Below, in pieces: positions 24,001 through 33,000 of a stretch of 64,000 bases of DNA; positions within the stretch are counted from its first letter, which is position 1; the number at the start of each line of letters is the position of its first letter. Source of the DNA: Microcaecilia unicolor (Eukaryota); assembly GCF_901765095.1 (NCBI RefSeq), contig NC_044037.1, positions 104,295,279 through 104,359,278 of the forward strand, in the 5' to 3' direction. A program made the position numbers.

Positions 24001-27000
24001 GGAGGGCAGGGGAGAGGAGAGGAGGGTTGCTGGACATGGGTGGATGCAGGGCAGGGGGAGAGGAGGGTCGCTGGACATGGGTGGATGGAGGGCAGGGGGA
24101 GGAGGGTTGCTGCTGGACATGGGTGCATGGAGGGCAGGGGGCAGAGGAGGGTTGCTGGACATGGATGCAGGAGAGGGAAGGGAGAGAGAAGAAATGCTGG
24201 ACATGGATAGAGGGGAGGGAAGAATGAGGAATGAGATGAGAAGAGGGAAAAGGAAGAGAGGAGAATAACTGCACATGGATGGAGAAAATAGGCTGAAGCT
24301 GGATCCACTGGACAGTCAAGTCTGCTGAGGACCCAGCTTTTACTTACAGATGTAGGGCAAGAAATGAAGAAGAAAGGCGGAAAGTAAAGAAATAAATGGA
24401 AAGGAAGCCCTGGAAATGGAGTTAAGAGGACAGATAGCAGCAGAATCGGATACTGGGCCGGCATGATCAGAAAAACAAAGTCACCAGACAACAAAGGTAG
24501 AAAAAATCATTTTATTTTCATTATAGTGTTTGGAAAATGTCCACTTTGAGAATCAGGTGCGCAACATTAAAAGTTTATTTTTATTTACTTATTTATGGCA
24601 TTTTATCCCACATTAAACATGAATTAGATTGCCCCCCCCCCTCAGGCTCTCTCCCCGGCTATAACCAGCTCTGCAATTTGGGGGGCGCAGAGGTGGACCG
24701 GGGAGAGAGCCTGTTGTTAAACATTTACCAGCACACCACTGCCTCCTGGCCTCAGTTACCTTGTGGAAGTCATCGAACTGCACCGAGGCTACAGCCCCAC
24801 GGATGCGGGAAGCAATAGCCTTGCAGGCATCTCCCACAAAGTCTAGCACGCTGAAGATCTTAGCAGCTTCTAGAGGGTCATTTTTATCCTTAATGTCAAA
24901 GTGCCTGAAATTGACAAACGGACAAACAATGGAGACAGAAAAAAAAAATCATATGTACAGAACACAGTACAGTACATCCTTTCCAAGGGACACACTGTAT
25001 TCAGGAAATAATCGTTTTAGGCAGCTGCTACAGAAACCCTTCATCAACCACTGCCCCCTTTACTGGAGTAGCAGTAGGCTGTGAACCAGGGACATCAGGA
25101 TTCAAATCCCATTTCTCCAATTGATGTTCTTTGTGACCTTGGGCAAACCAGTTAACCTTCTTTGCTTTGGGTACAAACCTATGGCCACATTTATTAACCT
25201 GTATTAAGGCACATTAATGTGAGTTTTATGCTCAGTTAGTAACTAGATCCGATTGAGAACAGAGCTAGTGCTAAATCACATTAGAGATCTAGATCAGTAG
25301 TTCTCAAACCTGTCCTGGGCAGACAACAGCCAATCGGTTTTTCAGTATATCCCTAATAACAACATAAGAATAGGCATACTGCATTAAGACCAATGGTCCA
25401 TCTAGCCCAGTATCCTGCTTCTAGGTCACAAGTACCTGACAGCAGGGTTGTAGTCACAGGGGGGGGAGGGCCTCAGGAGCCCAGGTCCCCCATTCTTGGC
25501 ACAGCCTACCTCCCCGTGTCCGTCTGGCATCCTCCCACCCCAGAACTTGCTTGGTCTGGTATTTCTCTCTTGTCTCCCTCCTCCCCGCAGTCTGGCGTCT
25601 TTTTTTTTTTTTTTTAAACTGTTTTTATTGATTTTCAGTTATACAACGCATTTCACATTTTTACATCTTATCACTCATAACAGTACGCTACAATTTTACG
25701 CCATTTATTGCTAGTATTCCCTTCCCTCACTTCCCCTCCCCCCCGTATCATGGTGGTGCTATTGTCTGTTCATGCAAATGTTCATATGGTTGCCACACTT
25801 TGCTAAAGGCTCCCATTCGCCCTCTTCTCATAGCCGTCAGCTTTGCCATCTGGTATAGGAAGTCCACTCTTTGCACAACCAGTCTCATTTCAGGTGGCTG
25901 TGGGCTTTTCCATTCTCTGGCTATAACCAGTTTAGCTGCCACCAGGTATTGTATGGCTAGTTTGTGCTGGGGTCCTTTCGCTGAGGCTGGCTTGAAGTGA
26001 AGGAGGCAGTTCGCCGGCTTGCAGGGGAAGGGGCATTGAAGTACTGTCGTTATCATTGCTATCACACTCTTCCAAAATTCTATTATCTTGGGGCATTCCC
26101 ACCAAATATGCATAAACGTGCCTCTAGCCCCACATTGTCGCCAGCAGTCTCCTGACGTCTCTGGGTATATTTGCTGTAATCTATCTGGCGTATAGTACCA
26201 CCAGTAAAAAATTTTAAATCCATTTTCAATTGCATTTTGGGCCATAGAGGGTTTAAAAAGATAGCGATAACCCCTTTTCCAACACTCCTTTGAGAACGTA
26301 CCCTGCAATACTCCCTCCCATCTATTGATATATGTTCCTTGGGGGTCTGTATGTTGGAGTAATGCTAGATATATGCGTGAGATACTTCCCCTTCCCCCTC
26401 CTTTCCCCATCGCCAATTCCAAAGATGTTTCCCCCAGCTCCAGTTCTTCTCGGGCCTTGGTCTGGAGGTAGTTACGTATGCAACAGTAAAACACCTGATC
26501 TCTAGCCTGCAATCCATATTCCTCCTGTAGCTCTGCAAAGCTTATTATCTTATCATCATCCCATAGTTGGCCCAGCTTGTGAAGACCCGCCCGTGCCCAG
26601 TGTTTAAAGGCTATCTCAGTGGCCCCTAAAGGAAAGCCTGGTGCCCTGCATATCCCTGTCTGATGAAAATATGTACGTTCCGGGAACCACTGTTTCCTAA
26701 TTTGGCACCAAGTGGATAAAATGTGGCTAAGTCCAATGGGCATTCTGCGCCCTATACTCCCCAATTCTTTACTGGATATCCACAAGAGATCCCCCACCTC
26801 CCTCATCCCCAGCCATGCCCTTTCCCAAAGTAGCCATTTTTTATTAGCTGCTGGGTGCCAATCAGCCAGGATTCTCAATTGTGCCGCCTGATAATAAAGA
26901 AAGAAATTGGGGACTCCCATCCCACCTCTCTCTAATGGTTGAAATAGTATAGCTCGCCTCACCCGTGGGGGCCGCTTTCTCCAAATAAACGCAAACAACT

Positions 27001-30000: not shown

Positions 30001-33000
30001 AAGAAGGTTAAGGCAAAGGGGTATTGCCACTTATAAGGCACTCCTTCCTCTCTAAGTTGCGCTGTTAGCGGACGCAGCTCTCCCCGACGTTTTAGGGTTA
30101 TGGCTGATATATCTTGGTACAGCTCAATCGGGTAGCTTTCCCATTGCACGGGGCTCTCTAATCGCGCCTTCTTCATCACTGCTTCTTTTATTTTAAAGTC
30201 CGTGAAGCAAGCCACTATATCTTTTGGCTGGTTTGGTCTCCTGGCGCCCAATGCACGGTGCGCGCGCTCAAGGCGAATGCTTGCTTTGTCATAGGGCTGG
30301 TCTTCAGTGGATAGAACTTGCGCTGCTATAGACTGTACTATTTCCTCACAGTCATTGAATTCTGGCAGTTCGGGCACCCCCCATATTCTAATATTAGAGC
30401 GCCTGCTCCGGTTCTCTAAATCCTCAATTTTATCCATGAGGTATTGAGCTTCTGATTTTCGCTCCCCAAGCTGTTGTTCCACTGCCTTGTTCACTTCTAT
30501 TTGCTCCTCCTGACCATTTTCGATCTCCATTACTCGGTTGCCCAGTTCTGATATTTCCCCTCTTAGCTCCGTACTTAATTGGGCAAAGTCTTTGCGCATT
30601 TCCTTCAGCTCCGTTTTTATTTCTTGGAACCACGTGCACAATTTCTCCCACACTTCGGGCTCTGCCGCCGCTCTGTCGATCGATAGCTCGCCTCGTGGAG
30701 ATTCCAGACCTTGCTCTGCCATCGTCGACGCATGGGCGCCATCTTCTTCCGCCACTATTCCATCCGCTTTAGCTTTTTGCTGGTAGGAAAAGGCCGCTAA
30801 ATCTGGCGTTTTAACTTTGGATTGCGACATCTCTCGGCTCAATGCACTTTCCACTACCGAATGCGGCAGTTTCCGCTTGTCCCACGGGGGTTGGACTGCT
30901 ATAAAATCGCTATTTTAAAGCTGGTAGACGGGAGCTCCGTTTTCACCGCTCCATTTGCTAGCGTGACGTCACTTCCTCCTCGTCTGGCGTCTTTTTCACT
31001 ACCTCCCCCCCCCCCCTCCACTGCAGTGCCAGTGCACTTCTCTGACTTTCCAGTAGCGTCAGCTCTCAAAGCAGTTTCGCCTCTTGCTGGCCCCAGAAGC
31101 TTTCTCTCTGCAAGCATCCGCCTATGCAGGAACAGGAAGTTGTGCAGAGAGAAAGCTTCTGGGGTCAGCAAGGGATGAGGTGGGCTGCCTTGAGAGCTGA
31201 TGAGCTGCTGGAAAGTCAGAGAAATGCAGCAGCAGTGTTGGCGGGGTTGTGAAAAAGACACCGGACTGCAGGAAGGAGGGAAGGGAGAGCAAAACCGGAC
31301 TATAAGTGGTGATGGAGGAGGGAAAAATAAATGCTAGATCATGTGGGTGGGGGGGGGGGGGGTGAGAGTTGCCAGATCGCTGTGAGTGGAGGGAGACAGA
31401 AGAGACAATTTGAATGAGGGAGATGGTGATGAAGAGAGGGGGAAAGACACTGGACCCACAGGACGGCAAGGGGGTAGTTGTGAGGGATATGCTTGGGTGA
31501 CCAGAGTAGATGGGAGATGGGGTAATGGGGGTGGGGGTAAGGGCTTGGACGTATGAAAGATGAGGAGAGATACAGCATCTCTCTCTCCCTCAGTAGATCC
31601 AGCACCACTGAGAGGAGGCACCGGAGAGATGCTGGATACAAGGAGACACAGGTACAAGGGCATGAAAAGAATGACGGTAGACAGACAGAGAAGAAATATC
31701 AAATAGACAGGAGACTCTGGAAAGATCAAAAAATAGATGGGACTGGGGGGGAGGGGAACAGAGTAGAAGTGGAGGAGTGGAGGAGTGGCCCAGTGGTTAG
31801 GGTGGTGGACTTTGGTCCTGGGGAACTGAGGAACTGAGTTCGATTCCTGGCACAGGCAGCTCCTTGTGACTCTGGGCAAGTCACTTAACCCTCCATCACT
31901 TGCCGCATTGAGCCTGCCATGAGTGGGAAAGCACGGGGTACAAATGTAACAAAAAAAAAAAAAAGATGGATGGCACTAGGGGGTGGGGGGAGAAGGGGAA
32001 GCGAGTACAAGATGGATGGGACTAGGGGGGAGAGGGTGAAAGGGAAAGGGGAAATGGAACTTGATATACCATCTTTCTGTGGTTTTTGCAACTACATTCA
32101 AAGCAATTTACATAGTATATACAGGGGTCCTTTTACAAAGGCGTGCTGAAAAATGCTTGCGGTAGTGTAGGAGCGCGTTTTGGGCGCATGCCAATCCATT
32201 TTTTAGTGCACCTGTAAAAAAGGCCTTTTTTTGCCGAAAATGGACGTGCGGCAAAATGAAATTTGCCGCACGTCCATTTTGGGTTTGAAACCTTACCGTC
32301 AGCCATTGACCTGGCGGTAAAGACTCACGTGGTAACCGGGCAGTAATGACGAGCGCCAAATGCCACTTGGCGCATGTCCATTATGCGCGCCTGAAAATAA
32401 AAAATATTTTTAGACGCCTGTATCAGACGTGCGCCAAAAATGAAATTACCACAACAGCCATGCGGTAGTCTGGTGGTAACTCCATTTTGGAGTGCGTTGG
32501 GCGCATGTAGATGCTTACGTGGCTTAGTAAAAGGGCCCCACAGGTACTTAAGGGACAATATTAGGAGCACGAGTGGTGGGAGTATTCATGGTATCGTAGG
32601 GTATGCAACATCACATCATGGAGGAAGGTGGAATCGAATCAGTTTAAGGGGAGTAGATGACGTGAGATCTGAAATAGAATAAGATACAAGCAATAGGAAA
32701 CGGAGCATATTTTATAGAGTGTTTGTTAATGTAATTAGTTTATTAATTGTAACGTCCATTTTATGTAGTAACTCAGACGCTTTCCTTTCTACTCATACAC
32801 TCACATATATCTATGCTCATTTAGAACTTGCCAATGAGTACAATCATCATAGGAGTAGTGAATTATTAGATATCGGATATTATATATGATATAAGACAAT
32901 TGTGTGTGTAGGTGGAAAAGGCACTTTGCTCATTTGATAAACAATAGAGTGTATACAATATATAAGCAGGGATTAGACACTGTGTTATTTAATTTGATTT

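Follow-up and report, generated by a model that had tools for sequence, protein, structure and literature searches.

A structurally complete, probably young L1 of amphibian type in sense orientation within an MVP intron of Microcaecilia unicolor

Non-mammalian vertebrates carry many divergent L1 families of low copy number, which are young and rich in intact copies (PMC5381506, PMC5203782), and L1 expression is known in amphibians including caecilians (PMC8498967). The 5' untranslated regions (5'UTRs) of such elements average 142 nt in frog, 165 nt in fish and 229 nt in lizard clade 2, a short 5'UTR was inferred as the original condition in vertebrates, and mammalian L1s have 5'UTRs of 906-3,229 nt (PMC5381506). 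Here we analysed a 64-kb window of Microcaecilia unicolor DNA (the window is the whole stretch presented above, and all coordinates refer to it) that holds an L1 on its minus strand. We read this element, with a probability of about 85%, as a structurally complete, young L1 of amphibian type with a type-II open reading frame 1 (ORF1), inserted by endonuclease (EN)-dependent target-primed reverse transcription in sense orientation into an intron of MVP. What the analysis shows is the anatomy of the element, the identities of its proteins, a target-site duplication whose pre-insertion site has one copy, the host gene with the orientation of the insertion in it, and a tight limit on how old the element can be. 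As L1s go, the copy is ordinary, a recent insertion belonging to a well-known family.

The element is delimited by an exact 15-bp direct repeat. The window holds exactly two occurrences of the 15-mer GTCTGGCGTCTTTTT (25590-25604 and 30982-30996), also when one mismatch is tolerated, and its chance expectation in 100 dinucleotide-preserving shuffles was 0, so the direct repeat reported in the initial annotation was found to be exact and the only such pair. The 5' target-site duplication is the copy at 30982..30996 (minus strand), which reads AAAAAGACGCCAGAC on the element strand, and the 3' target-site duplication is the copy at 25590..25604 (minus strand). Between the two repeat copies lies the element proper, 30981..25600 on the minus strand, 5,382 bp in length. 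On the plus strand the pre-insertion site reads ...CCCCGCA-GTCTGGCGTCTTTTT/CACTACC..., and the first nick falls after a run of five T, TTTTT/CA. The L1 EN consensus is 5'-TTTT/AA-3', and the nick site is close to it.

The L1 interrupts the left arm of a palindromic (hairpin-like, or miniature inverted-repeat transposable element-like) and potentially cruciform sequence of about 350 bp, which is made of 25553-25604 plus 30997-~31300 and has three nested inverted-repeat pairs (I1-I3) with 81-97% complementarity. On one side of the L1 it covers 30997..31300, and on the other the left arm resumes at 25553-25604. The partner arm served for an internal empty-site test, in which it was aligned across the reconstructed junction and four reconstructions were scored. 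The score was 99 with one copy of the 15-mer, 80 with two copies, 70 with no copy and 52 with the filled site. Because the partner arm, which carries a single copy, aligns best with one copy, the 15-bp repeat is a genuine target-site duplication, and the empty-site comparison that had been proposed as a check of the duplication was thus achieved within the locus itself. When the element was compared with the window by blastn, it matched itself alone.

All parts of the element lie on the minus strand. The 5'UTR (30831..30981) has 151 nt with 53% GC, 11 CpG and a CpG observed/expected (o/e) ratio of 1.06, and it is presumed from these features and its motifs to act as an internal promoter; the motifs include GGAAGTGACGTCAC (ETS-like and CRE-like) at nt 7-20, GGAGCTCC at nt 45-52, within which the frog-conserved GAGCTCC is found, and TGACGTCA. 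ORF1 (29793..30830; 1,038 nt, 49.5% GC, CpG o/e 0.85) starts with the ATG at 30830 and encodes 345 aa. The ORF1 of 353 aa reported earlier was right in being open and wrong in length, as it had been counted from an in-frame GTG at 30854, and the 5'UTR of about 127 bp given there was counted from the same GTG and becomes 151 nt from the true ATG. The inter-ORF spacer (29525..29792), 268 nt long, is closed by stops in every frame, and a G-quadruplex motif lies in its G-rich tract at ~29619-29588. ORF2 (25748..29524; 3,777 nt, 45.3% GC) encodes 1,258 aa, as reported, with an APE-type EN, a PIP box, a reverse transcriptase (RT) with FADD and a CX3CX7HX4C motif. Neither ORF has a stop or a frameshift, which agrees with the earlier description of both ORFs as intact.

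The 3'UTR (25616..25747) has 132 nt, with a G-rich polypurine tract at ~25744-25719 right after the ORF2 stop and AATAAA at 25629-25624, and the GC content of 3'UTR and tail together is 33%. The poly(A) tail (25600..25615), already recognized as a poly-T next to the left repeat, consists of 16 A (16 T on the plus strand), the last five of which (25604-25600) are common to the duplication, so that the tail is 11-16 nt long. Six internal polyadenylation signals are found in the ORFs and eight AATAAA/ATTAAA signals in the whole insertion, and the overall GC content of the element is 46%. The L1 thus has two sense-strand G-rich tracts of G-quadruplex type, one in the spacer (29588-29619) and one just past the ORF2 stop (25719-25744). 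In mammalian L1s such a tract in the 3'UTR is typical, and elsewhere among vertebrates it is rare (PMC5381506).

Both proteins were identified as those of an L1. ORF2 carries the Pfam domains Exo_endo_phos (aa 5-209) and RVT_1 (aa 521-772), the PIP box QATLHEFY at aa 406-413 and the FADD box of the RT. It matched human L1 ORF2p (8SXT) with an E value of 2.9e-196 over essentially its full length (aligned aa 4-900 and 1043-1248) and the L1 EN 1VYB with 2.4e-28, and the best non-L1 retroelement was R2 with 1e-26. The C-terminal Cys-His motif CWRQCGARGTFMHIWWEC (26093..26146, minus strand; aa 1127-1144) belongs to the CX3CX7HX4C type described in PMC5381506, and each of its four invariant columns (C, C, H, C) is kept. 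ORF1 gave no match to the Pfam L1 ORF1 model (Transposase_22), and because the Pfam L1 ORF1 models were silent, its identity was taken from sequence and fold matches in the PDB. By phmmer, ORF1 matched the RNA recognition motif (RRM) and C-terminal domain (CTD) of human L1 ORF1p with E 7e-12 (2YKP), and 2LDY gave E 1e-10. Its AlphaFold (AF2) model has a disordered N-terminus, an 86-residue helix (58-143, coiled coil), an RRM (147-239) and a CTD (243-301), and when this model was searched against the PDB by Foldseek, the top 12 matches were all human L1 ORF1p. ORF1 has no zinc knuckles. On these matches and the predicted fold, we assign the element to the L1 clade sensu stricto with a type-II ORF1p, and not to Tx1-like elements, CR1, RTE or R2, which supports the original identification as L1.

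For the host gene, a human MVP query in tblastn served only as a lead to the exons, and the matches were verified independently with Pfam and a protein database. Colinear MVP exons lie on the minus strand at both sides of the L1, and the intron that holds it in sense orientation spans 24905..36450 on the minus strand (11,546 bp, GT...AG), with the flanking exons ending at 36451 and starting at 24904; the sense insertion into an MVP intron claimed at the outset was therefore correct. The joined exons of the window contain the Pfam domains Vault_4, Vault_3 and MVP_shoulder, and their translation retrieved major vault proteins, the best from the frog Hymenochirus with 81-82% identity (the entries are partial or isoforms). 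An un-bootstrapped neighbour-joining (NJ) tree placed the MVP fragment as sister to two frogs and outside fishes and amniotes. This placement fits an amphibian and possibly non-anuran host, and the non-mammalian tetrapod named in the initial annotation is reasonable. A 5.4-kb sense insertion with eight AATAAA/ATTAAA signals in an MVP intron could be polymorphic, and the L1 polyadenylation signals could cause premature polyadenylation of MVP transcripts.

To bound the age, neutral decay was simulated with assumed parameters: kappa was 2, the rate at CpG was raised 10-fold, and indels were 0.1-0.2 times as frequent as substitutions. Both ORFs were still open with a probability of 0.30-0.48 at 0.1% divergence, 0.05-0.16 at 0.25%, no more than 0.025 at 0.5% and no more than 0.001 at 1%. 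Under this model, two open ORFs imply a post-insertion divergence of less than roughly 0.5-1%, and an old element preserved by chance was rejected. Against a background CpG o/e of 0.38, the 5'UTR reaches 1.06 and ORF1 0.85. Because the open-ORF probability collapses by 0.5-1% divergence and CpG is near 1 in the 5'UTR and ORF1, the word recent is justified, which translates into an age of no more than a few million years if neutral rates typical of vertebrates apply, and the recency claimed for the retrotransposition was borne out to this extent. The intact duplication and the pure A-tail added little to the age bound.

The likely course of the insertion was modelled on the established L1 mechanism, and in this account the function of the promoter, the sequence of events and any present activity are inferred. 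A source element would have been transcribed from its short CpG-rich internal 5'UTR promoter, and its bicistronic RNA would have yielded two proteins, ORF2p and the RNA chaperone ORF1p, which forms a coiled-coil trimer. The ORF2p EN would then have nicked the plus strand at 5'-TTTTT/CA-3' inside one palindrome arm, so that the T-run, paired with the poly(A) tail, could prime reverse transcription. The whole RNA would have been copied, and second-strand cleavage 15 bp away would have given rise to the duplication.

Whether the resident copy itself can still retrotranspose is a separate matter, on which the initial annotation, calling it a candidate for competence, was right about the open ORFs but is weakened by a change at one invariant EN residue. 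Conservation was analysed against 113 full-length homologues, L1 ORF2 proteins of fishes, amphibians and mammals, in whose alignment 46 columns are invariant. The copy keeps 45 of the 46, and the only deviation is Asn228 (codon AAT, 28841..28843, minus strand), at the position of an invariant EN Asp (human D229), which gives S-N-H instead of S-D-H. Asp is found at this site in 113/113 of the full-length homologues and, as D-H, in 96/96 further aligned cluster representatives, 209/209 in total. Counterparts of the human EN residues E43, D145, N147, D205 and H230 are present at aa 37, 141, 143, 204 and 229. Human D229 is annotated as metal-binding and catalytic (PMC3670995), and D205 and H230 are essential in human L1 (PMC4837594). 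Because an invariant catalytic Asp is replaced, impairment of the resident copy for autonomous EN-dependent retrotransposition is somewhat favoured by the alignment in spite of its open ORFs.

The TCC-AAT found here is the product expected from a CpG transition of TCC-GAT. ORF2 aa 1108 (26201-26203, minus strand) is Trp (TGG), and Arg stands there in 108/113 homologues; since TGG could derive from CGG via a CpG transition, R1108W is a second possible hit of CpG decay. E1227A is a third deviation from conserved ORF2 positions. As a rough estimate, a functional family with N, not seen among 209 proteins, would have a prior below ~0.5%, and a hypermutable CpG site would be hit with a chance of ~2% at 0.2% divergence. 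Judged by this comparison, Asn228 is most likely a copy-specific lesion, several-fold likelier than a family-wide trait. Two intact ORFs do not guarantee competence, as a single CpG-type change at an invariant catalytic residue illustrates here.

The best-surviving alternative is that the copy is fully competent, with Asn228 as a functional peculiarity of the whole family, and is a live source (master) copy. Both ORFs are open with nearly all invariant ORF2 columns kept, the canonical EN-type nick site and the 15-bp duplication indicate that the source machinery worked, and in a leave-one-out test 16% of the homologues also deviated at one invariant column. The tolerated S228A in human L1, next to the position concerned, also speaks for it (PMC4837594). 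On the other side stand the Asp in all 113 and 96 compared proteins of fish, amphibians and mammals, its annotation as metal-binding and catalytic, the exact fit of the TCC-AAT context to a CpG transition with the same signature at R1108W, and the observation that fewer than half of human L1s with intact ORFs are active in culture (PMC5203782). We therefore regard full competence as rather unlikely, though a serious contender.

A bolder form of this idea, which we consider doubtful, is that the copy represents an uncatalogued, deep-branching amphibian L1 lineage, possibly of caecilians or salamanders, whose active members would use S-N-H rather than the universal S-D-H. If true, the lineage would be a natural experiment in which the metal-binding Asp of the L1/APE-family active site is dispensable or replaceable, and it would join a frog-type architecture to a 'mammal-like' CX3CX7HX4C motif and G-rich 3'UTR tract.

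No close relatives of the element were found. Exact-protein look-ups with ORF1 and ORF2 gave no record. Among ~15 billion proteins, the nearest to ORF2 were ~35% identical: a word-indexed search gave nothing above ~35-38% identity, and an exhaustive phmmer search of ORF2 against 1.84 billion cluster representatives gave 132,377 matches at E <= 1e-3 and no relative closer than ~35-38%. Metagenome contigs scanned with a protein pattern and with 20-mers of the 5'UTR gave no match. The homologue search with ORF1 returned three weak matches, one of them from the tree frog Hyla sarda, which was too few for a conservation analysis. The ORFs of transposable elements (TEs) of most amphibian genomes are absent from protein databases. 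In an NJ tree, ORF2 branches deeply beside L1s of Xenopus and Leptobrachium. A nearest identity of ~35% is normal, because the X. tropicalis families are equally diverged within one genome (ORF2 identity 38.5% within a clade and 27.5% between clades; PMC5381506).

Several points weigh against our reading of a complete, young L1 with an impaired EN. Searches of the window by blastn, of proteins and of metagenomes yielded no sibling copy or family consensus, so the true 5' terminus and the ancestral codon 228 were not directly seen. The age bound depends on the assumed substitution and indel parameters. De novo human insertions have much longer A-tails than the 11-16 nt found here, and by this comparison the short tail speaks against a very new event, so that the insertion need not be extremely recent. 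In the literature searched, no measurement of D-to-N at this position of the L1 EN was found. The change of the adjacent residue in S228A was tolerated (PMC4837594).

The second structural alternative is that the copy is 5'-truncated and without a promoter, the true 5'UTR of the family being much longer, a concern that had been raised with the initial annotation. A 5'UTR of 151 nt is indeed very short when compared with those of mammals, but it lies inside the range of frog L1s (91-162 nt, 55% GC) and near the frog, fish and lizard clade 2 means given above, and its GC content and CpG count are typical of such 5'UTRs or higher. The other parts also agree with frog L1s (PMC5381506): ORF1 has 1,038 nt and 49.5% GC here and 999 nt and 50.5% GC in frog, the spacer 268 nt and 257-1,032 nt, ORF2 3,777 nt with 45.3% GC and 3,735 nt with 43.3% GC, and the 3'UTR 132 nt with ~33% GC (with tail) and 98-365 nt with 35% GC. 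All Xenopus L1 families have GAGCTCCG ~40 nt from the 5' end (PMC5381506), and this copy has GGAGCTCCCG at nt 45-54 of its 5'UTR, so that the shared GAGCTCC(C)G stands at nt 45-53. The 7-mer GAGCTCC occurs 8 times in 128 kb of strand, which gives p ~0.002-0.01 for a sense hit at this place. The ETS-like and CRE-like sites at the 5' end resemble the transcription factor sites at the 5' termini of other vertebrate L1s. Because part lengths and GC match the frog ranges and GAGCTCC sits at the expected distance, 5' truncation is judged unlikely from the sequence, and the version of it that lacks a promoter is quite improbable; the concern was not borne out.

The weakest alternative, that the element belongs to another LINE clade (Tx1, CR1/L2, RTE or R2) or that its repeat arose by chance or segmental duplication and not by retrotransposition, can draw on the silence of Transposase_22 on ORF1, on closest ORF2 relatives of ~35% identity and on CR1-like and other retroelements elsewhere in the window, but it is hardly credible, as the match to human L1 ORF2p lies 170 orders of magnitude above that to R2, ORF1 has the L1 type-II fold without zinc knuckles, the poly(A), AATAAA and T-rich nick site are hallmarks of L1, L1 families of one and the same frog genome normally share no more than about this ~35% identity, the shuffles gave an expectation of 0, the palindrome partner has a single-copy pre-insertion site and a second element copy is absent from the window by blastn. 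Tx1, CR1 or R2 identity was thus ruled out by the ORF2 and ORF1 matches and the type-II fold, a chance repeat by the shuffles, and a segmental duplication by the lack of a second element copy in the window together with the single-copy pre-insertion site.

The window contains several further repeats. An endogenous retrovirus at 44155-55105 (plus strand) lies antisense to MVP and upstream of the L1-bearing intron, with long open frames for gag (1,088 aa; zf-CCHC), pol (1,274 aa; RVP, RVT_1, RNase H and rve) and env (663 aa; TLV_coat). In 42-58 kb, no pair of long terminal repeats reached a length of 100 bp. The retrovirus probably explains the undetected MVP exons between ~38 kb and 64 kb. A decayed LINE shares the MVP intron with the L1; it is a 151-aa ORF at 35552-36007 (minus strand) that carries an RVT_1 fragment (E 2e-25), and its motifs YLDFSKAFDTVPH and FADDTK look CR1/Jockey-like. 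At 60649-62744 (minus strand) there are several ORFs of 150-200 aa (e.g. ...TYINHQGGTQS...) with no match in Pfam, which we take to be similar to DIRS-type retrotransposons. A 212-aa ORF at 803-1441 (plus strand; ...LDYCNALYAG...), also without a Pfam match, is presumably the C-terminal part of a CR1/L2-type LINE ORF2. Long ORFs on both strands at 23115-24494 come from low-complexity G/C-rich tandem repeats, GGWRAGERRVAGH / PALHPPMSSNPPLP, and this region lies within the MVP intron that separates the exon at 24760 from that at 22981. Rfam gave no match in 24-37 kb. The repeats of the window other than the L1 (endogenous retrovirus, CR1-like RT fragment and ORFs that look DIRS-like) resemble the TE landscape reported for a caecilian, in line with the amphibian placement of the MVP fragment.

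The significance of the L1 beyond annotation is small, since young intact L1s are already known in non-mammalian vertebrates. It does provide a clean and well-delimited reference copy for a family consensus in this genome.

Among the known systems, the L1 families of Xenopus tropicalis (PMC5381506) are the closest, and their architecture matches this copy almost number for number. Frog L1s have a total length of ~5.5-5.7 kb, an ORF1 of ~1 kb with ~50% GC, a spacer of at least 257 nt, an ORF2 of ~3.75 kb with ~43-45% GC and an AT-rich 3'UTR that ends in AATAAA and poly(A). Xenopus L1s have GAGCTCC ~40-45 nt from the 5' end and frog L1s a moderate A-bias, both as in this copy, and the frog mean of 7.5 internal polyadenylation signals compares with 6 in the ORFs here. 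Differences were also found: ORF2 is merely ~33-34% identical to the retrieved Xenopus and Leptobrachium proteins, the 5' terminus is GAGGAGGAAGTGACG instead of the frog consensus GGGGGCGTGGCC, and the length of 5,382 bp is slightly below the frog range of 5,470-6,340. In addition, the copy has the CX3CX7HX4C zinc motif, a type assigned to mammals and a few non-mammalian families (PMC5381506), and a G-rich polypurine tract opens its 3'UTR, an unusual feature for a non-mammalian L1.

Lizard clade-2 and zebrafish L1s likewise combine a short 5'UTR (~0.16-0.23 kb) with a long spacer and a total length of ~5.4-5.8 kb, and their copies are few and young (PMC5381506, PMC5203782). The GGACTTCCGGTT of zebrafish L1 is comparable to the ETS-like GGAAGT at the 5' end here. 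The GC content is 46% here but 35% in lizard and 37% in fish, and the protein searches found no close sequence relationship to lizard or zebrafish L1s. Tx1 and other type-I-ORF1 elements occur in the same host groups, amphibians and fish, and their ORF2 also has an APE-type EN and an RT, but their ORF1 has zinc knuckles (PMC5203782), in contrast to the type-II coiled coil-RRM-CTD protein here; and unlike Tx1, this copy was inserted in an intron at a T-rich site and not into a specific repeat target.

Human L1 (L1HS/L1RP; 8SXT/8UW3/8C8J, 1VYB, 2YKP) shares the two-ORF organisation, the order of ORF2p parts (EN, PIP box, RT with FADD and C-terminal Cys-His motif) in a full-length alignment, the coiled-coil/RRM/CTD fold of ORF1p, and likewise the poly(A), the T-rich nick site and a duplication of ~15 bp. 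ORF2 identity to mammalian L1s is merely ~31%, the 5'UTR has 151 nt here versus ~900 nt in human, with no YY1 site at the very start here, the spacer has 268 nt here and 63 nt in human L1, and the A-bias is weaker here. The EN of human L1 has S-D-H where this copy has S-N-H.

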